A stretch of DNA of 55,910 nucleotides from Kiritimatiellia bacterium (lineage in GTDB: Bacteria > Verrucomicrobiota > Kiritimatiellia > RFP12 > UBA1067), in assembly GCA_018384485.1 (NCBI GenBank), contig JAHBAE010000051.1, positions 1 to 55,910 on the forward strand. The letters are read 5' to 3'. Position 1 is the first letter of the stretch; the number at the start of each line of letters is the position of its first letter. The notes under the pieces were generated by a model. It worked only from the letters and a program-made list of their open reading frames with translations. It made no database searches and was not told where the DNA came from. Shown here in pieces: positions 27,741 to 50,600 of this stretch. The translations under genes and the position numbers were made by a program.

Positions 27741-28754
27741 TCACTTCGCCGAAAACCATTTGTTTCGTGCGGCGAAATCAAGATATTCCTTCCAATCGAC
27801 AGAAGTCAACTCATGCTCACCGGGACGGACATGATAATTGATACATGACCTATCCTTCCAGGCGGGAGCAGAATATTCCCAACACGCCATTTCTCCTGGA
27901 GGGCAAGCCCACCAATCGTCAAGAGCGGAGCCGATAGCCATAAGGCGCGGCGAAACTGCAGCAACAAGCCAATGTTGGTCGAAAGGAAGCGAGTAATCCT
28001 TCCCGCTCCAAAGTTTTCCCGCATTCGGCGCAAACCAATGAGGGAAGAAATTCGTTATTCTCTCAATTGATTCACCGTAAAGATTGCGCGAATGAAGGCG
28101 CGCGCCGAAACAACCTGAATTATTGGCGACAGTCATCGCGAAACGTTTGTCGTTGGCGCCTGCCCAAAGCGCAGTTTTGCCGAGCCTCGAATGGCCTACG
28201 ATTGCAATCTTCGATGCATCCGCGAGACTTTCCGTTTCAAGATAATCGACTACGCGGCTTGCCGCAAACGCCCAAGCGGAAATAGCCCCCCATGAATCAT
28301 CCTTGCGCTCAATGCAAGAAAGAACATCAGCTTTGTCTTTAAGAACATCTTCGTAGCAGAACGATACGGTAGATGCGCCTCGTGCAAGAATTTCGGCTAT
28401 CGGCCAGCGCGAATTTGCAGTCTCGGTAGACGGCCTAAACGAAATATAAATAAACACAGGTGTTTTTTCAAAACCGTCGGGGAAATAACAAACCGCATTG
28501 AACGCTTTCTCGCCAAGAGGAGTGAGCGTGTTGATGCGCACAATTTTTCGCGTTGCAGAAAACTCCGGGACCTTCTCCGTCTTTATGACCTTAGCCTCAC
28601 GCACAAAGGACGCCTCTGGCATTTTGCCGTAAACATTCTTGGCAAAAAACGAAAGAACTTCTGCGCGATTCTTATTGAGTTGCGGCGGAGTTTTGACTTC
28701 AGCGCGGCAAAACGCGCAAGCAAGAATGGCAGCAAGAAAAATTCTCAAATTCAT
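27741..28754 (-). CDS. Secreted alpha/beta-hydrolase, CE15-like (glucuronoyl esterase type), paralog A
   Basis: Start at MNLRIFLAAILACAFCRA with an AGGAGG Shine-Dalgarno. Nucleophile motif GHSRLGK. C-terminal GEHELT (putative catalytic His). The family assignment is from memory of CE15 motifs. Confidence 0.6.
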   Translation of the reverse strand: MNLRIFLAAILACAFCRAEVKTPPQLNKNRAEVLSFFAKNVYGKMPEASFVREAKVIKTEKVPEFSATRKIVRINTLTPLGEKAFNAVCYFPDGFEKTPVFIYISFRPSTETANSRWPIAEILARGASTVSFCYEDVLKDKADVLSCIERKDDSWGAISAWAFAASRVVDYLETESLADASKIAIVGHSRLGKTALWAGANDKRFAMTVANNSGCFGARLHSRNLYGESIERITNFFPHWFAPNAGKLWSGKDYSLPFDQHWLVAAVSPRLMAIGSALDDWWACPPGEMACWEYSAPAWKDRSCINYHVRPGEHELTSVDWKEYLDFAARNKWFSAK

Positions 28755-28780
28755 AAATACCTCCTTTTTTCTTTTACACA

Positions 28781-29824
28781 TCACCAACCGTGCTTCTTGG
28801 CGAACTGAATATACACGCTCCAGTCTTCACGCGTAAGTTCATGCCCCCCTTTGCGTATGTGATAATTGCAGCGGGACTGATCTTTCCATGCGTTGCGGGC
28901 AAGGAAGAAACTTGTAAATTCTCCAGACGGGCACGCCCACCAATCTTCGGTCGCGCTGCCCACCGCGAGAAGCCGCGGCGAGATTGTCGCAAGAAGCCAG
29001 TGTTGATCAAAAGGAAGCGAACGATCTTTCCCGCACCAGCGCTCGCGGCAGACAGGGGCAAACCAATGAGGAAACACTCTTGTGATACGATCTATCGTCT
29101 CGCCGCAGACATTCACCGTAGCGCACCTTGCGCCGAAAAGCCCTGAGCAATTAGGGCAAACGAGCTGGAAGCGCGTATCAAGAGCACCTGCCCAAAGCGC
29201 AGTTTTGCCGAGGCGTGAAAGGCCGACAATAGCGATTTTGGACATATCGGCCTCTTCAGTAGTCTCAAGATAATCGACTATGCGGCTGGCGGCAAGCGCC
29301 CAGGTGGAAATTGCACCCCACGAATCCGGGGCGCGGTTTACGCCTTTAAGGACATCTGCCGTATCGTTCAAGACTTCACGGTTGGTAAACGTAACCGTCG
29401 CATGCGAATTCGAGAGTGTAATGTAATCGACGGGCCACCTTTCGACGGCACCTTTATGCGCTTGAAGAAACTGCCTGATGGGCGTTTGAAAGCCAGGCGT
29501 AACCCAGACGGGTACTTTCCCCGCCTTCTTGGGAAAATACGCAGTGGCGATAAAGTTTGTCTCACCGAGCGGAGTTAAGGTGTTAATCTTAATTCTCCTG
29601 CGAATACAAGTTTTTAAGTCGACATTCTCAACGACTTCATAGGAAGGCTTAAAATCCTTCATATCAGGCCGGACGCCGTAAACATTAGTCGTAAAAAACT
29701 CAAGAACGGCTTTTCTGTCAGTATTAAGCGGCGGGATTCCGTACTTTGAATCGTTCCACTCGCCGAAACATACAGGCGAAAAAAGAGCGAAAGCACATAA
29801 GGTGATGTAAACTTTCTTATTCAT
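28781..29824 (-). CDS. Secreted alpha/beta-hydrolase, CE15-like, paralog B
   Basis: Start at MNKKVYITLCAFALFSPVCFG. Motif GLSRLGK (Leu in place of His before the Ser) and GGHELT. By eye about 60 percent identical to paralog A over the catalytic half. Confidence 0.6.
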   Translation of the reverse strand: MNKKVYITLCAFALFSPVCFGEWNDSKYGIPPLNTDRKAVLEFFTTNVYGVRPDMKDFKPSYEVVENVDLKTCIRRRIKINTLTPLGETNFIATAYFPKKAGKVPVWVTPGFQTPIRQFLQAHKGAVERWPVDYITLSNSHATVTFTNREVLNDTADVLKGVNRAPDSWGAISTWALAASRIVDYLETTEEADMSKIAIVGLSRLGKTALWAGALDTRFQLVCPNCSGLFGARCATVNVCGETIDRITRVFPHWFAPVCRERWCGKDRSLPFDQHWLLATISPRLLAVGSATEDWWACPSGEFTSFFLARNAWKDQSRCNYHIRKGGHELTREDWSVYIQFAKKHGW

Positions 29825-29838
29825 AATACTTATTCCTT

Positions 29839-31224
29839 TCAAACCTTGTAATAACTCTCCCAACCCTTGCGCGGCGGAGGCCCTTCGAGATAAAAATCAA
29901 CTTCTTTATCAGATAGAGCGCGCTTGGCGACAGGATCAAACTTGAAGGAGCGACCGAGACGCTGCGCGACAACAGCAAGGCAGAAGACCTGGGAAAGAGT
30001 TCCCGCTACACGGAACGGGCTTTTCGCCTCCGTCTCTCCGCGAACGGCGCGAAGGAAGTTCTTCCAATGATCTTCATAAGATTTCTCAAACTCAGGGACC
30101 TTTTCATCCTGCGCACCGCAACGGACTAAAGTTGCAGAATGAGAAAGCCCCTGCCATACGGTGCCGTCAGCAAGATAAATCTCTTTGCCAGGCTTAAGCG
30201 GCGGGTCGATAAGCCCGTCGTTTGCGGTTGAGGCAGGGAAAAGCCCCTTGTTGTCGACATAACGAAAACCCTTGGGTAGCTTAGGTTTATTATCAACCCC
30301 TTCGTACCACTCAATCTTCACGCCGCCTTTGAATGTCAGCGTAACGGTATCTTCAATCGGGAAGACGAATTTATTCGCGCCTGACAATGAAGATATCTTA
30401 ACCTCCTTTGGGAGAGCGCCTTTTAATGTGAAGCGATGAACTGAATCAAGGATGTGCGCGCCCCAGTCGCCCATGCAGCCCATGCCATAATCATACCAAC
30501 AGCGCCATTCACCGTAAGCGAGATCTTTTGAGAAATCATTATATGGAGCGGGCCCGATCCACGTATCCCAATCAAGCGTTGCAGGCATCTTTTCCGCCTT
30601 GGGGAAGGAATTGATCTTCCCTCCCCACTTGTGCCAGCGCCGCTCCATATTCATGTGGGAAACAACTTTTACGACATCTTTCAAAATGCCTGAGGCAACG
30701 TAATCGCGATATTGGTAGAAACTATTTCCGCTGTGGCCTTGGTTGCCCATCTGGCAGACGACACCCTCTTCCGCCTCCGCCTTCATGAGAAGCTCGCATT
30801 CGTGGAATGAATGGGCAAGGGGCTTTTCGACATAAACGGCCTTGCCGCGGCGAATAGCTTCAATGCAAGCGCAAAAATGCGCATGATCAGGAATGGCGAC
30901 AAGAACGGCGTCGATCTTATCGTCCATTACATCGAACATTTTCCTGAAATCTGTGAAGCGAGGAAGATTGGGATACTTTCTGAGAGTTTTTAAAGTGTGT
31001 TGCGCGCCGATATCAGTATCAACGAGCGCCACAATCTCGCAAAGATCAGGATATTTTTCGAAAGCGTCAACATCCCACGCTCCTTGACCTCCGCAACCGA
31101 TGACCGCGAGCCGCACTTTGGAATTAGCGACATATTTACCGAGCCCTTTACACCCAAGAAAATGCGACGCGCCTGCGGCAGCAAGCGAGCCTACAAAGAA
31201 TCTCCTACTAAACAAATTGTTCAT
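29839..31224 (-). CDS. Gfo/Idh/MocA-family oxidoreductase with Tat signal
   Basis: Start at MNNLFSRRFFVGSLAAAGA with a GGGAGAG Shine-Dalgarno. The tracked ORF runs on to 31317, into the repeat element. Rossmann RLAVIGCGGQG and EKPLAHS. Confidence 0.8.
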   Translation of the reverse strand: MNNLFSRRFFVGSLAAAGASHFLGCKGLGKYVANSKVRLAVIGCGGQGAWDVDAFEKYPDLCEIVALVDTDIGAQHTLKTLRKYPNLPRFTDFRKMFDVMDDKIDAVLVAIPDHAHFCACIEAIRRGKAVYVEKPLAHSFHECELLMKAEAEEGVVCQMGNQGHSGNSFYQYRDYVASGILKDVVKVVSHMNMERRWHKWGGKINSFPKAEKMPATLDWDTWIGPAPYNDFSKDLAYGEWRCWYDYGMGCMGDWGAHILDSVHRFTLKGALPKEVKISSLSGANKFVFPIEDTVTLTFKGGVKIEWYEGVDNKPKLPKGFRYVDNKGLFPASTANDGLIDPPLKPGKEIYLADGTVWQGLSHSATLVRCGAQDEKVPEFEKSYEDHWKNFLRAVRGETEAKSPFRVAGTLSQVFCLAVVAQRLGRSFKFDPVAKRALSDKEVDFYLEGPPPRKGWESYYKV

Positions 31225-31249
31225 CAATCTCTCCCTTTTATTGTTGTTA

Positions 31250-31258
31250 AGTATACCA
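31250..31258 (-). promoter_or_regulatory. Extended -10 promoter (TGGTATACT) for the Gfo / CE15-like genes
   Basis: Minus strand reads tggtatact, 25 nt upstream of the ATG at 31224. Confidence 0.45.
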
Positions 31259-31289
31259 TAAATAAAAGGGGAGTTGTGAAATATTAAGG

Positions 31290-31562
31290 GGGTGTGATTT
31301 TTCCGTGTAACATCCACTCCCCTTTAAGGATTTCAAAATTCGGAAAAATCACACCCAGGGGTCAGGGGTCAGGCAATGGGCAATAGGGTAGGAATCTTCT
31401 CTTCTATTCTGCCAGCGGTGTCCTACGACACGCGCTCCACATGAAACGAAGCGACATCCTTCACTATTGCCTATTGCCAAACCCCTGACCCCTGGGTGCG
31501 ATTTTCTCGCACTCGGAGGTCAATGATCCGTCAAAGGGATGTCACCTGAGAAAATCGCACCC
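31290..31562. repeat. Composite imperfect palindrome of about 273 bp, containing three nested inverted repeats
   Basis: GGGTGTGATTTTTCCG (31290-31305) pairs with CGGAAAAATCACACCC (31341-31356). The arm aggggtcaggggtcaggcaatgggcaataggg (31357-31388) pairs with cactattgcctattgccaaacccctgacccct (31462-31493). GGGTGCGATTTTCTCG (31494-31509) pairs with GAGAAAATCGCACCC (31548-31562). Confidence 0.8.
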
Positions 31563-31571
31563 ATCGAAAAT

Positions 31572-34500
31572 TTATTTCGATTCTTCCGATAGTTTTTGGA
31601 AATACAACCTAATCAAATTACGGTACTCAAGAGGAATATCTTTTAAATCTTTCTCTCCAAGCCCGTTCTTTGCGGATCCCTTAACCTTAAACCACCCAGC
31701 ATCACGAATTTTCAACTTGAAATTTTCATTCTTTTCAACTGCTTTCAACTCGCGCATCGCATTTTTAAGCTCGCGAGCAACTCCACCTGAAACACTATTC
31801 TTCTCAGAATCATCTGAAGTGCCTGCACCGCCCGAAGATTCTTGCTCATCATCTTCTTTTAACCCCAACTCTTTCGCTTCTTCTTTAAGATGCTCCTTTA
31901 AACTCTCCGCCGCTTCGGCAGCTTTCTTAGCCGAAGATGACATTTTCTCATCATTTTTTTCTGCGGTTGCTTTTTCCTCTGCGGCCTGTTGAGCATTTAA
32001 AAGAGCTTTTTCCAATTCTTTCTGCGCCTCTTGCTGTGCCGCAAGCGCTTCCTTGCGCGCCTGATCCATTTCCTTAAACGCTTCCGCCGCCGCCTTTGCG
32101 CCTTCTCCTCTTTGTTCTGACGCTTTTTTCGCTTCTATCGCCTCATCTATCGCTTCACGCGTTTGCTTTTCGGCTTCATGAAGATCTTCTCTCTCAGAGC
32201 CTTCAACATTCGCATTTTCAAGAACATCCTGCGCCGTGCTTTGCAAATTCATCGCTTGCCGCAAAAGGTGCTGAACTGAGTTGAGATTATTCTCTTTCGC
32301 CGCTCTTTTCAACGCCTCTTCAGCCTCTTTAGAGCGTTGAAGAGCATTTTTATAGGCTTCTTGCTTCATTGCCTCTTCTTGACGGGCAAGTTCTTCCTTA
32401 TGTTTTTTAAGAGCTTCTATGTTGTTCGAGAGCCTTTCAGCCATCTCTGCTTCAGCCTTTTCTTTATTCATCGCATTTCCCGCGTTTTCCATCTCGCGAC
32501 GCGCCTCGTCTACTTCTGCATCATTACTTTCCATAGCCACTTTTTTCGCTTGAGCGGCCGTTTCTTTTTGGAGATGCATCCATGCATCGAGAAGTTTTGG
32601 ATCACTCTTCTTTTCCTCTGCCGCCTTGCTTATTTCCTCAGCCGCCTTTGCAAGTAGTTCCTGGCGCTTAGCGATGTCGCTTATTTTTTCGTAATTGCGA
32701 AGTTTCTCAAATCTTTGCTCCATCGCATTTTTAAGCTCCTCCAGTTTTTCCATTGCCTCTTTCACCTCTTTAGGCATTTCTTCAAGAGCTTTTACACGAT
32801 CCTCACTTGCCGCAAATTGAGCCGTCTCCAGCTTATCCTTGATACTCTCTATCGTCTCATCAATAAGAGAATCAAGTTGTTCTTTCAATGGCTTGAACCG
32901 AGGATCTTCAGCCGCTTTTTCACGCATATCATCAAGGCGCTTTTCAGCTTCATTCATCTCATGCTCCGACAAAGCTATCTGCTTATCGGTTTCTTCGCTC
33001 GCCTTCTTTTCTCTGTTGATGTTGTCCTTCGCTTGGTTTGCCAATCGATCCGCCGCTTCCATTCTCCTGCGAGCTTCGTTAATCAGATTATTCATGTTCG
33101 CTTTTTCATCTACAAGAGACTGCATCTGATAACTTTCAGCCCTGTTTTCAAGATGCACCGTAACTGGAGTCGATGTTACGGAATGAGGCCCGCCCTTTTC
33201 TACCGGATAAGCATCGCGGACACATACGGCAAACTGAAGGAAACTTACATTTTTTAAATCAAGGAGCGAAAGATCCAAATCATCTGCGCCCCTCCAAAGA
33301 GACGCTCCCATTCTTGAAAATTTCGAAAGAGGTCTTAAATTCTGCCAATCGCCATTTCCGATTTTCACAACAATTTCATTTGAAAGATAAAGAGTGTCGT
33401 CGCTTGCAGTAACCTTAATTGGGATTTTTGCATGCGGCGGAACGCGTATTGATTTCTGCGGCTTTTCCAATACAATCGAAGGCGGATTATCAATAACGCT
33501 TTCAAGAACGCCGCCAGCTGGCTGAGCCCTAAACCCTACGGCATTCTCAAGCGTGAGCGACCAAGTGACAACTCTGTTTGAGACCATCGTCCATTCATCT
33601 CGCTGCATACCTGCTATGTTGAGAAACGCTTTATTTGCGCGATGATCAAGCTCTGTTTTAAAATGTACTTTCGAGCCTTCCAAAGCGCGTATGGCGGAAA
33701 TGGCATCGTTCGAAATAACGAGCGTCTTAAGCCCGGAATATTCAGGATATTCAATACACGCCGAAAACGACTTGTAGGACGGCAACTCAAAAACGCGAAC
33801 TGAATAATAGCGCGTCACAGCGGGACCTGCGCTTACGCGATACCTCCAATCATTCTCGGAAAGATTCGCTATCACGCGATAGACGCCGCCGCTCATTGAG
33901 GATGACGTCTCTTCGCTCCATCCGTTCCCGCGGCGGTGGGAAATGCGGATTTCAGGAATATACCTAAAGTCTTCATCTGCCTGCGCGTTTATTTCAATCT
34001 CGTCGCCGAGAAGCGCGTTCACATCACCCGGCTGGACTTTTATCACATCAGAATAAATATTACCGACTTCAACCCACGGAGCGACTATCCTTATGAAAAG
34101 AACGCCTGCAAGGCGAGGCAGTGCGATAAAAGAAACGATTAAAAGCCCTAAGACAATTAAAAGCGCGTAAATGCGGCGAAGAAAAGTGCGGAATGTAAAC
34201 TCTTTTACGATATCAATACTCTCAACAGACAACTCCGCCTTCTTCGCGATTAATCTTATAAACGTCAATGAAGTGGCAATTCTTTTCTTATCTTGAATAA
34301 GCTCAACTAATGTTGTAAGGCATTCTTCGTTGTTTTCATGACGCTCGTCTAAAATCTTTGCGATTTTCAACATATCTATGCGCCTAAGAAGAGGCCGCAG
34401 CACCGTAAGGCACACAGAAAGCAAAGTGAGCAAATAAACGGTTGCGGAAAGCGTCCAGCGCAGAGGATCGTAAAAAATCGTAACGCAGGCGTCTAACACC

Positions 34501-34628
34501 ATAAAAAGAAGCGTGATAAAAAGGAAAACAGCCAAGGACACCGCCGTGCCGCGCAACATATAAATGCGACGCACTCGCTTGGCCGCGCCATTGAGAACAG
34601 CTTCAACCTTCTTAGGAATTTCAATCAT
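31572..34628 (-). CDS. Large membrane protein with a long Glu/Lys/Ala coiled-coil; resembles the DUF4175/TIGR02302-type partners of MoxR-vWA operons
   Basis: 1018 aa. Three N-terminal TM helices, a beta-rich middle region, and about 450 aa of E/K/A-rich heptad-like sequence. C-terminal motif PLEYRNLIRLYFQKL. ATGA overlap with the upstream gene. Confidence 0.6.
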   Translation of the reverse strand: MIEIPKKVEAVLNGAAKRVRRIYMLRGTAVSLAVFLFITLLFMVLDACVTIFYDPLRWTLSATVYLLTLLSVCLTVLRPLLRRIDMLKIAKILDERHENNEECLTTLVELIQDKKRIATSLTFIRLIAKKAELSVESIDIVKEFTFRTFLRRIYALLIVLGLLIVSFIALPRLAGVLFIRIVAPWVEVGNIYSDVIKVQPGDVNALLGDEIEINAQADEDFRYIPEIRISHRRGNGWSEETSSSMSGGVYRVIANLSENDWRYRVSAGPAVTRYYSVRVFELPSYKSFSACIEYPEYSGLKTLVISNDAISAIRALEGSKVHFKTELDHRANKAFLNIAGMQRDEWTMVSNRVVTWSLTLENAVGFRAQPAGGVLESVIDNPPSIVLEKPQKSIRVPPHAKIPIKVTASDDTLYLSNEIVVKIGNGDWQNLRPLSKFSRMGASLWRGADDLDLSLLDLKNVSFLQFAVCVRDAYPVEKGGPHSVTSTPVTVHLENRAESYQMQSLVDEKANMNNLINEARRRMEAADRLANQAKDNINREKKASEETDKQIALSEHEMNEAEKRLDDMREKAAEDPRFKPLKEQLDSLIDETIESIKDKLETAQFAASEDRVKALEEMPKEVKEAMEKLEELKNAMEQRFEKLRNYEKISDIAKRQELLAKAAEEISKAAEEKKSDPKLLDAWMHLQKETAAQAKKVAMESNDAEVDEARREMENAGNAMNKEKAEAEMAERLSNNIEALKKHKEELARQEEAMKQEAYKNALQRSKEAEEALKRAAKENNLNSVQHLLRQAMNLQSTAQDVLENANVEGSEREDLHEAEKQTREAIDEAIEAKKASEQRGEGAKAAAEAFKEMDQARKEALAAQQEAQKELEKALLNAQQAAEEKATAEKNDEKMSSSAKKAAEAAESLKEHLKEEAKELGLKEDDEQESSGGAGTSDDSEKNSVSGGVARELKNAMRELKAVEKNENFKLKIRDAGWFKVKGSAKNGLGEKDLKDIPLEYRNLIRLYFQKLSEESK

Positions 34629-37600
34629 GCCAACCCCTTGCGTTTACGCAGAACCCACAATATTGAAAGTGCCGCGATAAGAATCATGAGAGCAGACGGA
34701 TGATTCCATATCGGATCTTCAACATGCTCAACTACATCAACGGAACCAGCGCCAAATCCATTTTCAAGCAGACTTAAATCATCCCCAACCTTAAATACGC
34801 GCGAACCTGTCATGCGAGCCATTTGCTCAGGTATTTTCATATCGGCCTTTACCGACGCATATTCAACCGGCGCGAGAGTGCGGCTCGACACAAAGTAGGT
34901 GGAAAGATCAGCCGGCCAACAATCCCCGAGCGATGCGGCAACATTCTTATCTTCAATCTTGACGGAATACTTTCCTTCTTCAGCCGTATCATCGAAAATG
35001 GCATCGTAATAGCCGTTTCCGCCAGGGCGCTTGGTTAAGGCTATAGAATGTGTAGGCCCACCGTTCGGAGATGTTACGATAGCTACGGGATTAGCATTCG
35101 TAATGGGATTGAAATCGCGATCGGTAAACTTGACTGAAAGCTTAACTTCTTCACCGGGAAGTATATTCATTTTCCCCGGGCCAACTCTTACATTGGCGTT
35201 TCCGTCGCGAAGCTTCTCGCCAGAACCCCAATTTACAATATTGCCCCAGAAGCGATGATGATACCTGTCTCCCGTGCGGTAGCGCAAGCGCCAAGTCTCG
35301 TCGGTGGCGAGGAAGACCACCTTCCCTTTGCCAGTTTCGGAAGTGACAACAAGAGGCAGGCTGTGAGCCGTGGAATCGCCGGAATAGAGAAGTATTTCAG
35401 AGCCAGGCTTAACTACAAGACCGTCAAGCATCGCACGCGCCGGAGGGAGCGAGCCCCATACTCTGCCGTTTTCAGAAAGCGTATGCGAAACTGATGTAAC
35501 AGGGTGGCTCATCCCTGAGGGCGTAAGGGTAAACTGCACCTCTTTTTCAACCCAGCGGGCAGTTACCTCGCCAGATGTATTAGTGATTGCTACCGGAAGA
35601 ATACGCATCAAATCATCTTTAACGTACTCACACGGCATAAACCTCTCGCCTGCAATAAACACAATCATTGTGCCGCGCTCTTCAGCAACGCGGAGAATGG
35701 AGCGGCGCGCATTTTCATCGAAGAACGACGGCGGGACGTCACCGATGACAATAACATCGAACTTGCGCCAGTCATCGTATGAACGCGGCAGCAGATTCGC
35801 CTCGGCATCGCCGAATTTCCGTGTTGCATCTGCCGCGATTGGAGCTTCAGAAGCGGAATGAGCAGTTTTATCGGGCTCGGCAAGCACGTACTGGAGGTGC
35901 ACTGATTTGTCTCTGGCGAAGAATAGGTTGCGCAGATACCTAAACTCCCACCTCGGGCGGCCGTCGATAATAAGCACATTTGTGCGGTCATCGGAGACGG
36001 CAACATCAAAAGGCCAAACGTCGTTCTTCTCTTCAACATCGCCTTCCAGACTATTAATGGCGACTGAATATGAATGAACGCCCTTGGTTATGGGATCATG
36101 TACGAAGCGGACGCTTTGAGACCAATCATCGGAATTTATCTCGTACTCCTTCTTTTCGATCTCTTTATCGCCCTCAAAGAGACAGACTGAAATCTTCTTG
36201 CCGTTCATCCCTGATGCGTGAACGACTGCCGTCGGGCGGATCTTATCTCCGAGATAAACCATCTCAGGAATGGTAAGCGACGTTACAGCCGCATCGACGC
36301 GGTTCGAAAGCGAGCCCACGACTACAGATGAAATTTTTGCTCCCGCACGCGCAAAGCGGCGGACAGCGGCAGAGATCTCGCCGCCTGCCGTATCACAGCC
36401 GTCTGTAATAAACACAGCTCCAGAGAGTTCATCGCTGGGAATAGTTTCAAGAATATCATCGAGGGCTGCGGCAAAATCAGTGGACGACGAGCCGAAGACG
36501 AGTTCTTCAACATCGTAGTTTTTAGAAAGGATGCCCCGAATCCGAGAAGCAAGATTGGTAGCAACAGTCAAACGCGCCACCTCGTTCGTATCAACGGGCT
36601 GATCGCTTCGTTGCATCGAAAGCGAACAGTCGGTTATTACGGCAACTCTGCGATGGATGCGGCGTTTGACATCATGCACCCAGCTAATATGCATAAACTG
36701 CCATACCATCGCAAGAACAGCGACAACGCGCAACGCTGTAAAAAGATGTGATTTTACCAGGCCGCCTCTTGTTGAATCGAGCCTGCGCGAGAAAAGGATC
36801 TCGGCAAGAAGAAGGAGAATGGCCGCTATGGCAAACGGACGCCAGATTTCAAGACCGAAACTTTTCCCGACAATTGCGGCGAGCGCATCATCGCGGCTGC
36901 GCGCCACGCCAAGATTTATGGAAACTGATACCGCGTCAAGCTGCTCGGCTGTAAGCTCAGTCAAATCACCCTCGCGGGAGCGCCAGGTATAATCATCTGA
37001 GGAAGAAACGAAATTCGTTGCAAGAGAGCTGTAGACAAGCTCGTGGACGAAGGGCACAAACTGAGGCCTCGCAGGAAGAGTCGTACAGGAGAAATCCAGC
37101 GGGAAACCGAGCGTTACCGTACGGCCGCGCCCAACGGAAGAAATAACGCCAGCACATTCACCGTTGGAATAGCGCCACGCGCATTCGCTGTTTTTTCCAA
37201 ACGCGTTCTCGTCGAATGCAGCGTGAGCGATGACAGGAGCACCTTTGAATGTAACGTTTTCGACGGAATCATTCCAGTTGGTCCATTTCGCGGCAAAAAG
37301 CGAATTTGTGTAATACTCGTGCTTAGACTGAGGCCCAAGCAAGTTGACGAGAGAACCGCCATTTATGACATACTTCGAAAGATTCGTCGTCGCCACGGCG
37401 GAGAGCATCGGAACATCGCAGAGAATTGCCGCATGAACGCCTTTAAACGCTTTCTCATTTTCAAGCGAGGCGGAACGGACGACTTTGGGCCTAACGAGAA
37501 ATCCGAGGTTCGTCCCCTTCACAGCGGGGCTTAAAGCCGCTTCCACGAACGCACCTGCGCGGTCATATCCGGTGGAGGCCGGCCGCCCATCCACGAGCAA

Positions 37601-38641
37601 GACATTAATTTCGTCCGATACTTCAACTTGATTTGTACAGATGGAATCAGAGGGAATATCGTCGGATAATGAAAGCGATGCTACAACGTTCCTCTTGCCG
37701 CTCTTATCAAACAAGTGCGTAAAGGCGAACGTTCTTGAAAGGCCGGGAAGAATCTGACCTACCGGCAAACGCGCCTTTTCCTCTCCATCAACGGAAAAGA
37801 CGGCGTCTCCCGGAGCAAACGCTTCGCTTCCGGAATTGACAACGCTTACCGTGAAGGTTACGGGACGGTCGGTGCCGATTACTCCGCTTGAAGGGATGAC
37901 GGCGGCAATCGCCGCGTTCTGAACTTTCTCAGGACGCTGAAAAGCGCGCCAAACCACAGGCGGGCGCACCGGAAACCTCTCGAAAACGCGCTCGACGCGC
38001 AACCACTGAGCCCTATCTTCCGTGCGCCAGCCGTAACCTTGACCGTCACCGAATATGATGACTTCCTTCAAAGGATTCTTGCCGACAGAAAGCACCTCCC
38101 CGGCCGCCACAAGAGTATTCGGCACATCCATCGCATCCGAGGAAGATTTGATTTTATGGAGAAGCTCAATAATCTCGCGCTTGTCGGAAATTGGAGAAGG
38201 CGTGAGAATAAGAGGCGTGCGCTCGCCCACAACAAGGCCGAACTTCGTGCCAGAAGGCGAAAGACGCACCAATTCCTCGGCCTCTTCAACAGCATTCTCG
38301 AACGTGGTTTTGCCGCCCGACCCCCCGAGCCGCATAGATGCGGAAGAATCAATTACTATAACTACATCTTTATCGGTTCCCGCGAGGCCGAAGAAACTTA
38401 TCTCCTTCAAAAAAGGCCTTGCAAAGGCAATTACTGCGGCAATGATAAGAAGAGTGCGAATAGCGAGAAGAATGATATCTTCAAGAATGAGCCTGCTGCG
38501 CTTCACGTTGAGCGATTCGCTCAGAAATATCCACGCGCCCCAAAGAATCTGGTCCGCCGTGCGCTTGCGCAAGAGATGGATTATAACTGGTATTGCCGCG
38601 GCAAGAAGGCCTGTTAAAACCAATGGAGCGAAAAATGACAT
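34625..38641 (-). CDS. BatA-type N-terminal double-TM protein with two vWA (MIDAS) domains and a C-terminal TM anchor
   Basis: 1338 aa. N-terminus FFAPLVLTGLLAAAIPVIIHLL. MIDAS motifs VVIVIDSSASM and VAVITDCSLSM. Central TM helices. C-terminal TM ALMILIAALSILWVLRKRK. Confidence 0.75.
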   Translation of the reverse strand: MSFFAPLVLTGLLAAAIPVIIHLLRKRTADQILWGAWIFLSESLNVKRSRLILEDIILLAIRTLLIIAAVIAFARPFLKEISFFGLAGTDKDVVIVIDSSASMRLGGSGGKTTFENAVEEAEELVRLSPSGTKFGLVVGERTPLILTPSPISDKREIIELLHKIKSSSDAMDVPNTLVAAGEVLSVGKNPLKEVIIFGDGQGYGWRTEDRAQWLRVERVFERFPVRPPVVWRAFQRPEKVQNAAIAAVIPSSGVIGTDRPVTFTVSVVNSGSEAFAPGDAVFSVDGEEKARLPVGQILPGLSRTFAFTHLFDKSGKRNVVASLSLSDDIPSDSICTNQVEVSDEINVLLVDGRPASTGYDRAGAFVEAALSPAVKGTNLGFLVRPKVVRSASLENEKAFKGVHAAILCDVPMLSAVATTNLSKYVINGGSLVNLLGPQSKHEYYTNSLFAAKWTNWNDSVENVTFKGAPVIAHAAFDENAFGKNSECAWRYSNGECAGVISSVGRGRTVTLGFPLDFSCTTLPARPQFVPFVHELVYSSLATNFVSSSDDYTWRSREGDLTELTAEQLDAVSVSINLGVARSRDDALAAIVGKSFGLEIWRPFAIAAILLLLAEILFSRRLDSTRGGLVKSHLFTALRVVAVLAMVWQFMHISWVHDVKRRIHRRVAVITDCSLSMQRSDQPVDTNEVARLTVATNLASRIRGILSKNYDVEELVFGSSSTDFAAALDDILETIPSDELSGAVFITDGCDTAGGEISAAVRRFARAGAKISSVVVGSLSNRVDAAVTSLTIPEMVYLGDKIRPTAVVHASGMNGKKISVCLFEGDKEIEKKEYEINSDDWSQSVRFVHDPITKGVHSYSVAINSLEGDVEEKNDVWPFDVAVSDDRTNVLIIDGRPRWEFRYLRNLFFARDKSVHLQYVLAEPDKTAHSASEAPIAADATRKFGDAEANLLPRSYDDWRKFDVIVIGDVPPSFFDENARRSILRVAEERGTMIVFIAGERFMPCEYVKDDLMRILPVAITNTSGEVTARWVEKEVQFTLTPSGMSHPVTSVSHTLSENGRVWGSLPPARAMLDGLVVKPGSEILLYSGDSTAHSLPLVVTSETGKGKVVFLATDETWRLRYRTGDRYHHRFWGNIVNWGSGEKLRDGNANVRVGPGKMNILPGEEVKLSVKFTDRDFNPITNANPVAIVTSPNGGPTHSIALTKRPGGNGYYDAIFDDTAEEGKYSVKIEDKNVAASLGDCWPADLSTYFVSSRTLAPVEYASVKADMKIPEQMARMTGSRVFKVGDDLSLLENGFGAGSVDVVEHVEDPIWNHPSALMILIAALSILWVLRKRKGLA

Positions 38642-39564
38642 CAGCCTCTTCCTCCGTTCTGATGATACCTTATAAGAATATCGGCGAGAGCCTCATCGAA
38701 AGGAGTGCTTGTCGAAACTAACTCGCCGGTAATATGCAGCTCGCCGCACGCACGCTTAAACTCATTATGATGCTTATTGAAACGCTCAAGATACTCGTTT
38801 CTGATTGCACGCGTGTCGATATTGAGGACGGAAGAACTCTCAAGATCTTCAAAGCGGCTCATTCTGGAATACGGGAAGTTAAGCTCTTCGTCCGCAACTA
38901 TCTGAACGGCTATGACTTCATGCTTGCGGTAGCTAAGATGATGAAGCGCCTTTACAAGGGAATTTATCTCGCTGAAAAAGTCGCTCAAAAGAAGAACAAC
39001 TCCCCTTCTCGGTATACGCTCAGCCACATCGTGCAAGACATCGGCAGTTTGCGTCTCTCCGCCGCATTCAAGTGAATTTATTGACTCAAGAATATTTTTA
39101 AGCTGCGCCGGACGCGATTTTGCGGGAATGAAATTACGGATAAGCGAATCGTACGTGACTAACCCGACGGCATCCTGCTGATTTATCAGAAGATAGGAAA
39201 ACAATGCCGCCAGATGCTTGGCGTAATTAAGTTTAGTCAACCCCGCATACGCTTTCTTGCCGCGGAAATTCATCGAACCGGAAGAATCGAGAACGACGGT
39301 GGCCCTCAGATTAGTCTCATCGACAAACTCACGGATATAAAGCCTGCGCGTGCGCGCCACGATTTTCCAGTCGAGCGAACGGATATCGTCGCCGGGCACA
39401 TACTGCCGGTGTTCGGCAAATTCGACGCTCGAGCCCTTCCGCACGCTCTTGTGGCGGCCGGCGACAAAACCGTCGACGGCGCCATGCGCAAGAAACTCAA
39501 GCTTGCCGATTTTCTGGAGGCTCGCGGCGGGCAGCCACCGCATATATGCGGGAAGATCAGACAT
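38641..39564 (-). CDS. DUF58-family protein (vWA-like, MoxR partner)
   Basis: 307 aa. [20 protein letters not shown] motif and VVLDSSGSM. 1-nt TGATG overlap with the downstream gene. Confidence 0.85.
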
Positions 39565-40579
39565 CGATCTCTTCGCTTGTACGCAGATGGTTAAGAAGCC
39601 TTAGAACAATATCGTCGGTTGTTACACCAGCAGCCTCAGCGTTGAACGTTGCGGCTATACGATGCCTGAGAACGGGGAGAGATGCCCATTTGACATCTGC
39701 GAGCGTCGCATACGCACGCCCCTGAAGAACTGCACGGGCTTTCGCCGCCGTTACGAGCGACATCCCAGCGCGAGGCCCAGCCCCCCAGCTTACAAGCTCC
39801 TTAATAAACTCAGGCGCTTCTGGTGATTTCGGGCGTGTGGCGCGTACGAAATCAGCGGCGTACTCGATAACGTAATCTGCCGCGGGGATGCGCCTTATGA
39901 GATCTTGAAGCTCAAGAATCTCTTCTGCGGTAAAAACGACATTTGATTTCTCTCCGCTCTCCCCTGTTGTGCGGCGGATAATTTCACACTCCTCTTCACG
40001 CGAGGGATAATCGACTTTAACATTGAAAAGGAAGCGGTCGAGCTGGGCTTCGGGAAGCGGATACGTCCCCTCCTGCTCGATCGGGTTTTGCGTTGCGAGA
40101 ACGAAAAAGGGATTGCCCAGCGGGTGAGACTCGCCACCAACGGTGACAAAACGCTCCTGCATCGCCTCCAGAAGAGCCGCCTGAGTTTTGGGAGGAGTGC
40201 GGTTGATTTCGTCCGCAAGAAGGATATTCGTAAACACAGGCCCTTTGACGAACCTGAAAACGTGCTTGCCCGTGACGCGGTCTTCATCGAGAATCTCAGT
40301 GCCCGTAACATCGGCAGGCATAAGGTCAGGCGTGAACTGAACGCGCTTAAAATCGAGCTGCATGGTCTCGGCGATTGTTCTAACAAGAAGCGTCTTGGCA
40401 AGCCCGGGAACACCGGTGAGAAGCACATGACCGCGCGCAAAAACGGCCGTAAGCACTTCATCGATCATCGCCTCCTGGCCGACAATCGTCTTAGCCAGTT
40501 CGCGTTTCAACTCAACGAACTTCGCGTGGAATTTTTCCATACGGGCGATGTCCGCCTCTGACTGTGTCTCATTCATCAA
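39557..40579 (-). CDS. MoxR-family AAA+ ATPase
   Basis: 340 aa. Walker A GVPGLAKT, Walker B LLADEINR, and [22 protein letters not shown]. Confidence 0.92.
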
Positions 40580-42342
40580 TTTTCATTCCTTTCTTCTTCG
40601 TCGTCGACAGTTTCGTCGCGTTGATAAATAGGCAACATACGATACGGCACTGCCAGCGCAAGAGCCGTCATTGAAGTGGCATAAGGCTCGCTGCCGACAG
40701 AGTCGCTCTGCCATGAGCCGTCAGGTTTTTGACGCTTAAGATATTCCTTATGCATCCAAGATTCAAAATTGCGCCAATAATCACCGCCTAACTGGAAAAA
40801 CCCCTGCGATGTGTAATAAAGGGCATAATAGCAATAACCTGAATGAAGAAGCGTATTCTTGTATACGTTAGAGAGATATTTGGCGGCTTTCAACGACGCG
40901 GGATCAAGATGGCGGCCGCAAAGCTCAAGGCAGAGTATTCCCGCCCCTGATAGCGTCTCGGCATAGCCACCATTGTTCTGATAGGAAAAGCGCCCATCTT
41001 GCGTCTGAGTGCGCTTAATATAAAGAACTGCTTTTTCAATCGCTTCATCAGGTATCTTCGCACCATTCAAACGCGCACTTCTAAGCGCCATAAGGGCCCA
41101 CCCGCTGCACGACAAGTCGCTATCTTGGGCATCTGGCTGATACCTCCATCCGCCGACATCAGCATCGCTTCTCTTCTTGATATTCTGAGCGTCGACAATA
41201 AGCTTGATTGCATGAGGTAAAACTGCATCAATGCGCGCTTGGTACTCATCATTGACCATACCACTGATTTCCGAAAGGAACAAGGTTCCGATGGAATGAG
41301 CATACATAGCTCCTTCACCGCCCATAAACCCGGGGAAGCGCGATTTTGGATTCATATCGGCTAACTTGAGAACTGAATCCAAGCACTTGTATAAAGTCTC
41401 AGAATATTTGCCGCTCCCCGGCAGATACCCCTTGGAAAGAAAAGCCATGCCTGCAAGAGATGGAATGGCGGCTGTATTGCCGTACCTTCCGTTAAACGTC
41501 CCATCCTCCTTTTGGCTTGACGAGAGATATTGAAGAGCCCTTTCAATCGATTTGTCGACATCATCTGCCACAGGCGAATAGATTGACCTTCCTCCTGCAA
41601 TACGCCAGGAACGCGCGTTCAATACAGAAGAATCAATTTTTGAACTTGGCTTTTCCTCTGGAGCTTTATTATTTAAGGAATCGACAAGAATTGAAGTTGT
41701 TCCCGCGCCAATCGCCCCTAAAGCGAGCAAAGAGCACACAATCGACCACGCACGCTTATAAAGCCACCCTTTCGGCCGCGTAGCCTTAACAAGCCTATCG
41801 GCAAATTCAGGAGAAAGCTCCGTATCCATGAGCATCGCATAAAGCGCATCCTTCGCGTAATGTAGACGGCTACGGACAGTTCCTTCAGGAATGCCTGAAA
41901 TTTTTGAAATTTCAGCCGTCGACATCTCTTCGAAATATTTTAAAATGACTACTTCGCGATAGCTTTCCGGAAGGCGTGTAACGGCTTTGCGAACAGCCTC
42001 GGCACTTCCCCTAAAGGCAAATTCCTCAAAAATGTTCTTTTCATCCTGCACTTCAGGAAGCTCCCCCTCGCAAAGCGAAACCTTGCGAGAGGCTTTTTTC
42101 CTAACATCCATGCGATGAAAATTCAGAAGAATAGTGTATATCCAATAATAAAACGAGCCAGTTGGACGAAAATCATCAATCTTCAATATAGCCTGCTCAA
42201 AAGCTTTAAATACGAGATCTTCCGCTTCGCTTTCATCGCCGCAAAGCATTTTTGCGGCTGTTTGCAGCCGCGCCCGATACTCCGAAACGAGCATTCTTGC
42301 ACCCGCTTCGCGATCTTTTTTTATTAACTCGTAAATCTCCAT
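40576..42342 (-). CDS. ECF sigma-70 factor fused via one TM helix to an extracytoplasmic prenyltransferase/terpene-cyclase-like repeat domain
   Basis: 588 aa. Region 2 is [10 protein letters not shown]...[17 protein letters not shown]. Region 4 is [37 protein letters not shown]. The TM helix is [23 protein letters not shown]. Four QxxDG(s/t/r)(W/F)-type repeats follow: [15 protein letters not shown]...[17 protein letters not shown] and [10 protein letters not shown]. Confidence 0.8.
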
Positions 42343-42392
42343 TCATTATCTAAATGTGTGACAACAAAAAATGTTCAAAATTTTTTCATTTT

Positions 42393-45173
<2,781 letters not shown>

Positions 45174-47614: not shown

Positions 47615-50600
47615 TTATTTTCTGACAGTATAGAAAATAACGCCATTGCCTTCGAATGACGAGGTCAAAGAGATATATCCCTTTTTGTCGACTTTCATTT
47701 CAAATTTGCGAGGCAGGACTTTCTCCGCTTTCTTCTGATACACCTTCTCAAGTTTCTCGACGAAAAGCTTGCGGAATTTTTCCGTTACAAGCGTACGCTT
47801 TGACATAACGGCAAAGTCATCGTAGCTCCAGTCGAAATCGCTGTCTTTAATGCCGTAAAGTACGCGGTCCTTTTCCCAATCGCAGAACCAATTGTTGCGG
47901 TTATCCAATATGAACTCATCAATCGTAACTGTTGTACCGGCAAACTCTTTCGGGAGGCGCAGCCGCACCATGGAAGACAAACTGTTCGTCCATGAAAGAT
48001 GATCGTAAAAACGCCCTATGCAAAAGCGTACAATAGAGGAATCTTCAGATGCACCTGCAAAGACTTCCATGCTCTCGCCATCGGGGAAGTCGCCGGTAAT
48101 TCCCGCAGCGGCTCTCTTAAGCCCGGCAAAGCGGGCAAATTCCCTTGAAGTGAAATAATGATGGCTTGGAAGGCCAATCGAAATAGGTCTTGGGCCTGAA
48201 AAATATTCCCATGTCGCAAAATAATCTGCTCCGGCATCTACAATGCTGCGAACGATTCGAAGGTCGATGGGGGCCTGATAGCTCTGCCCTAAGGCGCGAG
48301 AAACAATATCAGCCGCTTGCCGGCCCTTGCGCGAGCAGATAACACGCCCTTCATCAACACCCGTAACCACATTCGTAAAACCAGCCTTGTGTACTGCTTT
48401 TACAACTCGCTTCATCGGGTTAACATACCCTTTCTTGTCGCTGTGAGGCGAACGCGTATCAAAGTAATAAGAAATAGTCAGGAGTGACATAGGTGAACCA
48501 ATGCCACCTGTCGCGGCATTTTTCCCTGTTGAACAATGCTTCAGAAAATCTTCAATAGTAAATTGAGAGAAATACTCGTCATCCGGGTTTAGCATATGAG
48601 TTCCAAAAACGAGATTTTTTCCAAGCTCTTCCTCGAATGCCTTTGCCGTGTAATCGTAAAGCTTGAAAAATTCTTCCCGCGTTTGAATATTCTGCTCACG
48701 CTTCGTCTTTTTGTCGCTCTTCACACTAAACCAGCCGCAGTTATCAGCCTCGGTTAGAACTGCATAGCGCCACGAGCGGACTTCTTCAAGCCCAAACTCC
48801 GCCTTCAGCGCCGCAGCACAAGCTTTCATGTAGCGGTAATGAACGAGATGATCAATAGGCGGGCGAATATTCATACTGAACTCGCCATTATCAACATCCT
48901 TCGAAAATTTCGCCGGAACATTCCCCAGTTTTAAATAAGGCTTTGCTCCAGTTGAGAGAATCCCGCGGCACATTTTAATCAGATGGGAAAAATCGTAATC
49001 GTCAAGAACGGCCGTATTCGAGGGATCCTTAAGAAGATCTCTATCATCGTTTCCTCCGGTGCAGGCCATAAGCTCAATGTATTCAACGAAATCGCGCGTG
49101 CTGTAATTTTTGTTGTCGAAATTCTCCCAGTCGACGTTTCTGCCGTTCCAAACGGTTCTGACTTGCGAGGTGTTTGGGATTTTCTTCCCTAAACGAGTCG
49201 CGTCAACGGAAACGACAATATCTTTTTTCGAGACCGCGCTCGGAGGCGTGTAAACGACAAACTCCTTTATGCCCTTGATTGCGGCATCTGATTTTAAAAT
49301 TATTTTATGCTTTGAATTGGTGCAGTTTTGAACTAAAGTCACGCGTTCGCAAACGTCACGAGGAGTGAACTTGTCGCTGAAAAGACCTATGCATTTCCAT
49401 GTGATGGTATCTCCTGCACGCGCATATTTTCCTTGCGGCTTTTCATCTTTCTTCAATGAACGTTTGATAAAGTAGTCATACTGCCAAATTGCCATGAACT
49501 CATCTTTTTTAATGACAGCGCGCCCCGAGCGGGATGTGAAATCGGCATCACTCCTGCCTTCGCCGTCAAAGCCGGTCTCCGAGCCTTCAACTTTATAAAC
49601 CACCGGCCCGAACGGCTCGGTGCCTTCAATATACGTAAGAGTCCAGTCTTCGACCTTGGGGAATGCATCTGCCTTTCGCTCTATGATATTTATCATCGGC
49701 ATCCACGAAACGTATGCAGAGGGGCGCGTAAAGGCGTACATTTCACGATATGCGGACGGCACTTTGCCGTCAAGCAAAACTGAAGTCTCTCCGCCGCATT
49801 CGCCTGAAGTCACAGCCACGACTCTATTGCCGGTAAAGTTAAGCTCTACCGTTCCATCCTTGTTTTTCTTCACACGCGAAGAGGAAAAAGGAATTTTCTC
49901 TATTTTCCCGGACAGGTAGCTTTTTCCTTTCGCGCCTTTTATGCGGCAAAGCTCTTCACCGATAAAACCTGCGTAGTAAATTTTAGCATTGCTGTCCTTC
50001 TCGCTTTTGAGATGAATCGTATCGGCGAGCAAGTATTCAGCCTGCCAATTGTTGTCAATAAGCATCTTGCACCATTTGGAGCGAAGATCAATGAACATAC
50101 AGCCGTAGCGCGAAGCTATTTCGCGGATCTGAACGGAACGCTGATCCATTTTCTCCATAAGCTTCTTAGGATCATCGCTCGACCTGAGATGAGAAGACCA
50201 CAACACGATTTCCGCACTCGTAGTCTCGCGCGTCTTCTTTATGATCTGCTCGTATTTATCAATTGGGCCGTAAACGTGAAAGAAGAGAATATCCGGATAA
50301 AACGGATAAAGATCGCTCTCTGCCGTTTTGATAAGCCGAGGCGACTCATACCCACCGATCGCCCTGTTTTCCACATCAAAGACAACGGTCGGGTACTTCT
50401 TTTTAAGCCGCTCCATCAGATGAACGTGCCACTTCTGCCCGACGATCGACTGACCGTAGAAAAGCACTCTCACGTGAGAAGGATTTTCCTTGGTAGAATC
50501 CTCAAGTGCCTTCATCGTGCGCTGGATGTGAATCGCGCTTTTGTTCTCTTTAACACCTATCTCGCATGAAGGAATACTTTTTGCGGAATCTGCAAAGACA

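Follow-up and report, generated by a model that had tools for sequence, protein, structure and literature searches.

A membrane-anchored ECF sigma factor with a periplasmic toroid domain at the head of a MoxR-DUF58-Bat-type operon of gut Kiritimatiellae

Layout of the operon and architecture of its first gene

The DNA analysed here (the window) is a stretch of 55,910 nt from a Kiritimatiellia bacterium (GenBank assembly GCA_018384485.1, contig JAHBAE010000051.1, positions 1 to 55,910 of the forward strand). Positions 31572-42342 hold five consecutive minus-strand open reading frames (ORFs) of 588, 340/339, 307, 1338 and 1018 codons. In the order of the operon they encode an extracytoplasmic function (ECF) sigma factor joined through a single transmembrane (TM) helix to a periplasmic (α/α)6 toroid, a MoxR-family AAA+ ATPase, a DUF58 protein, a BatA-type membrane protein and a giant membrane protein of coiled-coil type (the CC protein). 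All five ORFs lie where a preliminary description, made from the sequence alone, had placed them (Table 1).

Start/stop overlaps of 1-8 nt, read directly from the sequence, connect all five genes. The DUF58 gene starts 8 nt ahead of the MoxR stop (ATGTCTGA, 39557-39564), the BatA-type gene starts on the last base of the DUF58 stop (TGATG at 38641, a 1-nt overlap), and the gene for the 1018-aa protein shares the 4 nt ATGA with the BatA-type gene (34625-34628). These three junctions are as previously described, but the ATGA reported at 40576-40579, between the sigma and MoxR genes, is not there: the sequence is aatTTGATGaat, which contains TTGATG. MoxR therefore starts either at a TTG (a TTGA overlap, 40576-40579) or at the ATG at 40576. 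The ATG, with a 1-nt overlap (TGATG), is more likely than the TTG with its 4-nt overlap, and it is the start that the gene caller took in a relative with 97% identity. Simple scans found no excess of sigma-70-type promoter or intrinsic terminator sites within the operon. The five genes are probably co-transcribed. The earlier claim that they form a single unit is in keeping with their conserved synteny, with a block of 96% DNA identity that spans them in a close relative (locus L171) and with the one promoter motif found ahead of the sigma gene, all described below.

The N-terminal part of the gene 1 product is an ECF sigma factor. Besides the Pfam matches to regions 2 and 4, the ECF superfamily model TIGR02937 scores 79.3 bits against a cutoff of 42.9, and Foldseek matches this part to the ECF sigmas SigW, AlgU, SigH, SigL and sigmaE. 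Pfam and NCBIfam detected no sigma regions other than 2 and 4, and the NCBIfam subfamily matches, the best being SigE-fam_strep and SigW, all fall under their cutoffs. The signatures FYYW..I..N..R.D.R in region 2 and GTV.SRLH.A in region 4 are invariant across 27 aligned homologs. The sigma domain is intact and under purifying selection.

Following region 4, a conserved cytoplasmic linker helix leads into the TM helix; E175, F180, L184 and T188 of the linker helix are invariant in the 27 homologs. An AlphaFold (AF2) model built on 27 homologs (mean predicted local distance difference test score, pLDDT, 72) contains the two helical sigma domains, a short helix at residues 180-187, the TM helix and a confident all-helical C-terminal domain, whereas the linker at 209-257, which contributes about 45 periplasmic residues, is of low confidence. 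The TM helix is Gly-rich, and the positive residues ahead of it indicate an N-in, C-out orientation. A zinc anti-sigma domain in the linker was considered and ruled out, as the HxxxCxxC motif is found nowhere in the protein.

The C-terminal domain contains QW-like repeats and matches SQHop_cyclase_C with 29.1 bits (cutoff 26.1); its structural matches in Foldseek are 8pak (TM-score 0.65, normalised to the target), AprG and MstE. Pfam, NCBIfam, the hydropathy scan and Foldseek thus agree with the preliminary description of a membrane-anchored ECF sigma carrying a toroid-like repeat domain, and the profiles it proposed for this gene (Sigma70_r2, Sigma70_r4 and SQHop_cyclase) found their matches, that for region 4 being Sigma70_r4_2. 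The toroid family has an invariant patch, GGWRY.P...DSD(L/M)S.SGW. The DxDD motif is absent in the 18 family members checked (8 of alignment A1 and the first 10 of A2), and a reading of the domain as a terpene cyclase was rejected on that ground; these proteins instead have the conserved DSD(L/M)S, at a position not aligned to the DxDD site. The CGEQ thioester motif is likewise absent from the toroid. A thioester-containing domain (TED) was accordingly rejected and is retained solely as a remote structural analogy; the TED_complement match in the Oceaniferula toroid ortholog is sub-threshold (E 0.0019), and beyond it the analogy draws on MG2-like and Ig-like resemblances in the Bat and CC proteins. 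The extreme C-terminus of the toroid (window 40603-40650) is invariant in eight aligned sequences that include both operon-linked and orphan copies, and two distant representatives end in ...LPIYQR and ...LPIFQR. A partner protein or a protease might recognise this end.

Conservation, promoter motif and relatives of the operon

Full-length homologs of the sigma fusion form more than 95 clusters at 51-97% identity, and the GTDB species genomes that carry it are gut, rumen and faecal metagenome-assembled genomes (MAGs) labelled Kiritimatiellae or mislabelled relatives. Among 1.84 billion representatives at 50% identity there is one full-length fusion of this family and one split form, and the strong matches in that library are mostly 340-400-aa toroid-only proteins. 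The fusion is a single 50%-identity cluster, present in gut and rumen Kiritimatiellae. A distant second fusion of ECF sigma, TM helix and toroid, P0245 (660 aa, JGI sample 3300047160), shares about 34% identity in the toroid and has a borderline Sigma70_ECF match (E 2.7e-4) as its sole additional domain match; ECF sigmas may have taken up the toroid as a sensor ectodomain more than once.

The gene order around the fusion is strongly conserved. MoxR and then DUF58 follow the sigma gene in all 20 distinct species-level contigs that extend far enough (L001-L013, L027-L030, L032, L035 and L038), and BatA and CC genes come next, as far as the contigs extend, in all but one. That one is L012, from a horse-faeces MAG, in which the sigma-toroid, MoxR and DUF58 genes (9604-13349) are followed by a convergent gene, without BatA or CC. 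The genes upstream differ among loci, which identifies the sigma gene as the conserved head. The preliminary description had allowed that the sigma gene might be associated with these neighbours at random; the census finds a non-random association, and that objection to its reading therefore falls away.

A second feature shared by these loci is a short motif, TGAAC-N16/17-(G)CATT, which precedes the sigma gene of every sigma-bearing locus and ends 10-15 nt before its ATG. It was found by eye-alignment of upstream regions that are otherwise unrelated. As the window copy ends 10 nt from the sigma ATG, the leader would be very short. In the 2.33 Mb of loci that were fetched, the motif has 53 matches, compared with about 14 expected from composition. 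Forty of the 53 are sigma-associated, all of these on the coding strand and all with GCATT, and the other 13 fit chance. Loci with unrelated flanks still have the motif ahead of sigma, and so do L017 and L018, in which the upstream gene overlaps the sigma gene. In three loci where sigma and toroid are separate genes (L017-L019), a second copy precedes the toroid gene and overlaps the last sigma codons. By contrast, it is absent from the whole of L016, where a toroid gene heads the operon and there is no sigma gene. Since the motif tracks the sigma gene and is missing in L016, these genomes do not use it as a general promoter. It is most naturally read as the target of the sigma factor itself, which would then exert positive autoregulation on the whole operon; TGAAC would be the GAAC-type -35 element expected ahead of an autoregulated ECF sigma gene.

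The window has five matches to the motif, compared with 1.0 expected, and only the copy in Table 1 suitably precedes a gene. Those at 23741 (minus strand), 37434 (plus) and 53516 (plus) are inside or antisense to coding regions and were dismissed as chance. The match at 8121-8146 (plus) is probably chance as well, having CCATT in place of GCATT; it lies 50 nt upstream of a ParA/MinD-like gene (8196-8864) with its own extended -10-like TGTGCTATAAT. Two other loci deserve mention. In L035 an additional copy (7738-7775) stands just upstream of the BatA gene inside the operon, suggesting an internal sigma-dependent start. In L003/L022, which are one rumen MAG, a 588-aa gene (139-1905) lies between the motif and the sigma gene and would be a passenger in the presumed regulon.

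The toroid also occurs in a wider set of operons. A profile search with the toroid family gave 442 loci in GTDB genomes. Among the best 80 of the 442, which were examined, BatA-like genes and a giant CC-like gene usually directly precede the toroid gene outside the sigma-bearing clade. When Bat2 of Oceaniferula spumae, whose genome is complete, served as the seed of a second scan with 10-kb flanks, 17 loci showed the series MoxR-DUF58-Bat1-Bat2-CC-toroid in full. They belong to Verrucomicrobiota, Kiritimatiellia, Lentisphaerales and Planctomycetota (Brocadiia, Pirellulaceae and Phycisphaerae); Pfam confirmed the content of the Oceaniferula operon. At least one MAG, of UBA1731, carries both forms, L034 in the canonical order and L043 headed by sigma, and in the canonical operon of L052 the coding regions of the CC protein (4816-7953) and the toroid (7950-8984) overlap. 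Because the toroid is last in the canonical operon, the window operon is best described as a permuted paralog, in which the toroid would have gone from last to first place and gained a sigma domain while Bat1 and Bat2 fused. The preliminary description had called the first gene unusual. This is true of the sigma fusion at the operon head, but the toroid is no exotic add-on, being the regular last gene of an operon of the Planctomycetes-Verrucomicrobia-Chlamydiae (PVC) group.

Toroids are found in other contexts too. P0247 (1014 aa) combines PPC, toroid and vWA domains in one chain, a hint that the toroid is independently linked to vWA partners. An orphan paralog, P0109, lies away from Bat genes in L015 (10001-12884), beside Peptidase_S49 (SppA-like) and YkuD L,D-transpeptidase genes, and further orphan loci include L036, L039 and L053-L056, among others.

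The head of the operon itself exists in several forms. In L017, L018 and L019, which represent sister lineages, it consists of two genes, a sigma factor of 175-195 aa, 51-55% identical to the sigma domain of the window, and a membrane toroid protein of 442-444 aa. The latter has about 50 cytoplasmic residues with two predicted helices, one TM helix and the toroid, and occupies the classical +1 position of an anti-sigma factor. Its second helix, LSxEFxxRLxxxTRP, is kept and invariant in the fused proteins, where the linker helix is homologous to it (aligned with P0101/P0102 and with the small membrane protein of L052). In L052 a related sigma gene (44% identical and with the motif) is followed by a gene for a 115-aa single-TM protein with the same two helices and no toroid, and this pair lies directly downstream of the canonical operon. 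In L016, finally, the toroid gene that heads the same operon has a plain signal peptide. L031 was considered as a second toroid-only head and rejected, because a single MAG contains both L031 and L014, as separate contigs that meet at a break within the fusion gene. Together these forms look like stages of a possible history in which a sigma factor with a short membrane partner came first, the partner then gained a toroid and the two genes fused. On this history, a structural subunit would have been recruited as an anti-sigma ectodomain and then fused.

The downstream genes and the flanks

The products of genes 2 and 3 have no TM segments in a hydropathy scan. Gene 2 matches the full AAA_3 model, and the DUF58 match of gene 3 covers model positions 1-215 of 216, accompanied by VWA_2 (E 4.7e-12).

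Gene 4 encodes, from the N terminus, a double-TM BatA_N region (TM segments at 3-21 and 56-74), a vWA domain and a CARDB-like domain, followed by a TM pair, a probable second vWA domain, GATase1-like and MG2-like segments and a C-terminal TM segment. BatA scores 46 bits, TIGR02226 63.5 bits (cutoff 23) and VWA_2 has an E value of 3e-13, whereas the GATase1-like and MG2-like segments are sub-threshold. The two halves separately match Bat1 and Bat2 of Oceaniferula, and to judge from this alignment gene 4 corresponds to the canonical operon's two Bat genes fused into one. The preliminary description had proposed a BatA protein of 1338 aa with two vWA domains. BatA_N and the first vWA are clear. 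The second vWA has no direct match in Pfam or the Protein Data Bank; it has a DCSLS motif resembling a metal-ion-dependent adhesion site, and its family profile weakly matches vWA structures alone (E 0.004-0.2).

Gene 5 encodes a TM hairpin, a cytoplasmic helical segment, a third TM segment and three Ig-like β-sandwiches (~200-495), after which a long helix leads into a helical region of about 450 aa rich in E, K and A and then into a conserved C-terminal stretch of about 70 aa. The AF2 model has a mean pLDDT of 73, Foldseek matches it to tandem Ig/macroglobulin (MG)-like domains, and among homologs the N- and C-terminal parts are conserved and the middle is variable. The protein itself has no match in Pfam or NCBIfam, and even at E <= 10 none to PF13779 (DUF4175) or TIGR02302. 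Four of 11 homologs (43-54% identity) do match DUF4175 (best E 2.1e-8). Gene 5 is therefore probably a divergent DUF4175-type protein, and the DUF4175/TIGR02302 assignment suggested for it finds support in its first half, by way of homologs. The other proposed profiles, for MoxR, DUF58, BatA_N and vWA, were all found (AAA_3, DUF58, BatA_N/TIGR02226 and VWA_2). The label of a Bat/aerotolerance-type operon fits loosely: MoxR, DUF58 and a BatA-type protein are present, but BatB/C/D/E-type proteins with TPR or SH3 domains are absent, the five proteins having no matches to TPR, SH3 or BatD domains.

Table 1. Features of the operon and its borders, in window coordinates
Feature	Position	Strand	Basis
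Putative ECF-type promoter, TGAAC-N16-CATT	42353..42377	-	ends 10 nt upstream of the sigma ATG
Gene 1, 588-aa fusion of ECF sigma, TM helix and periplasmic (α/α)6 toroid	40576..42342	-	Pfam, NCBIfam, AF2, Foldseek, homologs
Sigma region 2, residues 18-84	42091..42291	-	Sigma70_r2, E 3e-9
Sigma region 4, residues 115-167	41842..42000	-	Sigma70_r4_2, E 1.6e-15
Conserved cytoplasmic linker helix, residues ~173-196	41755..41826	-	alignment, AF2 helix 180-187
Single TM helix, residues ~197-219	41686..41754	-	hydropathy scan (segment 201-219), AF2 helix 192-212
Periplasmic (α/α)6 toroid, residues ~258-575	40618..41571	-	SQHop_cyclase_C, Foldseek, family alignment
Gene 2, MoxR-family AAA+ ATPase, 339 aa from ATG	39557..40576	-	AAA_3 213.6 bits (full model), AAA_lid_2 58 bits
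Gene 3, DUF58/vWA-like cytoplasmic protein, 307 aa	38641..39564	-	DUF58 165 bits, VWA_2
Gene 4, 1338-aa BatA-type membrane protein	34625..38641	-	Pfam, TIGR02226, five hydrophobic segments
Gene 5, 1018-aa membrane (CC) protein	31572..34628	-	hydropathy, AF2, Foldseek, homologs
Nested palindromic element, 274 bp	31290..31563		inverted repeats; three hairpins sharing GGGTGYGATTTT arms

The operon is followed by a gap of 254 nt that contains a nested palindromic element, which reaches into a listed GTG-start ORF (29839-31317). The preliminary description had placed such an element, of 273 bp, at the downstream border; it is real, with inverted repeats spanning 274 bp. It also has a pair of 49-nt arms, and its predicted RNA fold has an energy of -151.8 kcal/mol (z = -11.8 relative to shuffled sequence). 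The arm motif has no other copy in the window, and the element matches no Rfam family.

The significance of this border becomes clearer from L171, in which the sigma fusion has 97% protein identity with that of the window. Its positions 9928-20815 share 96% DNA identity with exactly window 31560-42413 (10.9 kb), and both flanks are unrelated, GH43 and Mrp/complex-I-like genes taking the place of ligA; a 21-nt remnant of the ligA 3' end is kept in the shared stretch. Since the 96% identity is confined to the operon, the operon was relocated, or its surroundings were replaced, as a 10.9-kb block between close relatives. At the other end the shared stretch reaches no further than the first arm of the palindrome, an element that L171 lacks. 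The palindrome thus appears to mark one breakpoint of the cassette, and could be a MITE-like (miniature inverted-repeat transposable element) insertion, a recombination site or scar, or a terminator.

In the window, ligA lies upstream of the operon across a 50-nt gap, and the downstream gap is followed by a Gfo/Idh/MocA oxidoreductase gene and two CE15 esterase genes. The latter are tandem, overlapping paralogs of the glucuronyl esterase type (27741-29863), and a 1009-aa GDSL/GH39-like protein is encoded at 47615-50644. Surroundings of this kind, devoted to glycan degradation, are typical of gut Kiritimatiellae. Two minus-strand tRNA genes (5640-5713 and 55678-55748) are the only Rfam matches in the window. 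A search of the five proteins in PADLOC (E <= 0.001) gave no matches, and a defence role as a MoxR-vWA conflict system was ruled out, there being neither a PADLOC match nor a β-propeller or effector gene.

Regulatory model, alternatives and known systems

The explanation that we consider best, and slightly more probable than otherwise, is that the window operon is a self-regulating, permuted paralog of a PVC envelope operon, with a sigma/anti-sigma hybrid acting on its own promoter. The toroid gene at the operon head would have become the periplasmic domain of an ECF sigma/anti-sigma pair, which in the window is fused into one chain. The sigma domain would recognise TGAAC-N16/17-(G)CATT and drive the whole operon, its own gene included, with the membrane tether keeping it inactive or limited. 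The toroid, which in the canonical operon would be translated together with the CC protein, may report the state or a ligand of the periplasmic Bat/CC envelope complex. In response to a signal the sigma domain would then be set free, the most likely means being regulated intramembrane proteolysis of the kind known from the hybrid IutY; in the model the disordered periplasmic linker of ~45 residues would suit site-1 cleavage and the Gly-rich TM helix site-2 cleavage. MoxR and DUF58 would be the cytoplasmic chaperone and adaptor with which the two giant membrane proteins are assembled or turned over; such a division into chaperone (or unfoldase) and adaptor is the general view of MoxR-vWA pairs (PMC3495828). 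An envelope function of the operon, including the remodelling proposed in the preliminary description, is itself suggested by analogy with the cmdA-D and Bat operons discussed below.

Several observations weigh against this explanation. Pfam finds no zf-HC2 or FecR anti-sigma domain between sigma region 4 and the TM helix (residues 170-197), and the first of the two partner helices is lost in the fused form; inhibition by the tether is therefore assumed. L012 keeps the head module without the two giants, so the five genes are not an obligate set, and P0245 has no MoxR neighbour on its 3.4-kb contig. The hosts of the fusion are all uncultured MAGs. To our knowledge, moreover, GCATT is not among the -10 motifs of ECF sigmas, such as CGTC or TCTAA.

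The lack of a full anti-sigma domain raises the possibility that sigma is active while tethered. RNA polymerase would be recruited to the membrane without proteolysis, in a form of transertion, and the toroid would tune activity by a conformational signal through the TM helix, as in the one-component regulators ToxR and CadC. The linker between region 4 and the TM helix is just ~25 residues long and includes an invariant helix, two products of the operon are giant polytopic membrane proteins, and so short a leader is in keeping with a tight coupling of transcription and translation. We nevertheless regard this as distinctly unlikely. The reviews consulted describe no active ECF sigma that is membrane-tethered, the one characterised hybrid, IutY, needs regulated intramembrane proteolysis (PMC8999054), and a tether of 25 residues must accommodate holoenzyme formation at the membrane. 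The split lineages, moreover, keep a free sigma, so that tethering is not required for function. Improbable to a similar degree is that the toroid is an enzyme or a module binding a small molecule or glycan, such as a polyprenyl-linked or polysaccharide intermediate, with the MoxR-Bat genes as its regulon. The fold resembles that of class II terpene cyclase-like single-domain proteins and of AprG, an enzyme acting on sugars, the GGWRY.P...DSD(L/M)S.SGW patch is invariant, and there are orphan paralogs away from Bat genes as well as the P0245 fusion without a MoxR neighbour. The absence of DxDD in all members checked speaks against an enzyme, and the tight adjacency of CC and toroid genes, which overlap in L052 and are neighbours across PVC phyla, argues for a structural partner. 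This possibility overlaps the autoregulated-operon explanation rather than excluding it.

Sigma factor function itself could be questioned, as GCATT is unusual for a -10 element. The sigma-like domain would then serve as an adaptor in the cytoplasm, where MoxR or DUF58, for instance, might dock, and the motif would be an ordinary promoter of the lineage or a product of chance. However, regions 2 and 4 have invariant signatures for core binding and DNA recognition, and TIGR02937 scores above its cutoff. The 13 motif matches without a sigma gene in 2.33 Mb are at chance level, and the motif tracks the sigma gene, is duplicated in split loci and is missing where sigma is missing. These invariant signatures and the motif statistics make a non-transcriptional role the least likely of the alternatives, and we consider it highly improbable.

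The autoregulated-operon explanation can be extended into a more general proposal, which we think unlikely: the toroid would be the reporting subunit of every PVC MoxR-Bat-DUF4175 complex, and the sigma fusion would bring to light a checkpoint on assembly. As long as the CC and Bat proteins engage the toroid, sigma would be kept at the membrane or silent there; if the complex lacks parts, is damaged or has bound a ligand, sigma would be freed, or activated in place, to rebuild the complex. This logic resembles the coupling of FlgM and sigma-28, here applied to an uncharacterised envelope-spanning structure. In a bolder form still, the MG-like β-sandwiches and the TED-like toroid could together constitute a disassembled, thioester-less relative of the periplasmic alpha-2-macroglobulin guards.

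MoxR-DUF58-BatA/vWA operons are widespread and their mutants have envelope or stress phenotypes, yet their molecular job has been unresolved for more than two decades. A sixth conserved member in PVC bacteria, the periplasmic toroid, offers a new handle on MoxR-Bat function, and the sigma wiring would give the complex its own transcriptional read-out through a simple, recognisable promoter. Because the system would carry its own read-out, whatever activates the promoter would be the signal to which the complex responds. In practice, the gut and rumen Kiritimatiellae that have the fused form are uncultured, which limits work on it; cultured carriers of the canonical operon include Oceaniferula spumae NT6N and Roseibacillus persicicus. 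In the searchable literature we found no report that the PVC operon has the toroid as its conserved sixth member or that the toroid was recruited as an anti-sigma or sigma ectodomain, and none of the associated promoter, and the main text of the 2021 ECF reclassification paper mentions no MoxR or prenyltransferase-type extension.

The closest regulatory precedent is IutY of Pseudomonas putida (ECF243), the only characterised sigma/anti-sigma hybrid, which is activated by regulated intramembrane proteolysis via Prc and RseP; the ECF48/52/53 hybrids, such as SCO4117, are predicted to work in the same way (PMC8999054). As in IutY, the ECF sigma of the window is fused C-terminally, through a TM helix, to an extracytoplasmic sensor, and there is no separate anti-sigma gene. 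The ectodomain differs, being an (α/α)6 toroid where IutY-type hybrids have FecR-type or carbohydrate-binding domains, and the toroid would thereby add a new ectodomain type to the sigma/anti-sigma hybrids. Unlike IutY, the window fusion has a conserved helix of ~25 residues ahead of the TM helix in place of a FecR or zinc-finger anti-sigma domain, its presumed target is a MoxR/vWA envelope operon and not siderophore uptake, and it belongs to a different phylum.

With regard to gene content, the closest match is the canonical operon of Oceaniferula spumae NT6N (L097), in which all six protein families recur. The window operon differs in that its toroid comes first and is fused to sigma, that a single 1338-aa protein stands for Bat1 and Bat2, and that the PA14 domain of Bat1 is missing. 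Envelope and cell-morphology defects are reported for mutants of cmdA-cmdD (RL3499-RL3502) of Rhizobium leguminosarum (summarised in PMC5700661). The cmdA-D and related alphaproteobacterial clusters share with the window MoxR, DUF58, a TIGR02226 double-TM protein and a DUF4175-type membrane protein, although the last protein of the window reaches DUF4175 via homologs alone and has no TIGR02302 match. We know of no toroid or sigma gene in the cmd operon. The Bat operons of Bacteroides, Leptospira and Borrelia likewise have MoxR, DUF58 and BatA-type vWA membrane proteins, and the BatA-type vWA domain of BB0173 of Borrelia is reported to face the periplasm (PMC5700661; PMC3557215). The window differs from batA-E operons in having neither BatB/C/E-type TPR or SH3 proteins nor BatD.

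The toroid itself has the same fold as 8pak, MstE (6sbe) and AprG (9c95), with target-normalised TM-scores of 0.52-0.65 over ~350-380 columns. It shares 13-16% identity with them, lacks DxDD and is periplasmic and membrane-tethered. The similarity of fold implies no enzymatic role. The ingredients are each known, namely ECF sigmas, sigma/anti-sigma hybrids and MoxR-DUF58-BatA-DUF4175 operons, and the system that combines them here is confined to one clade and is not categorically new.

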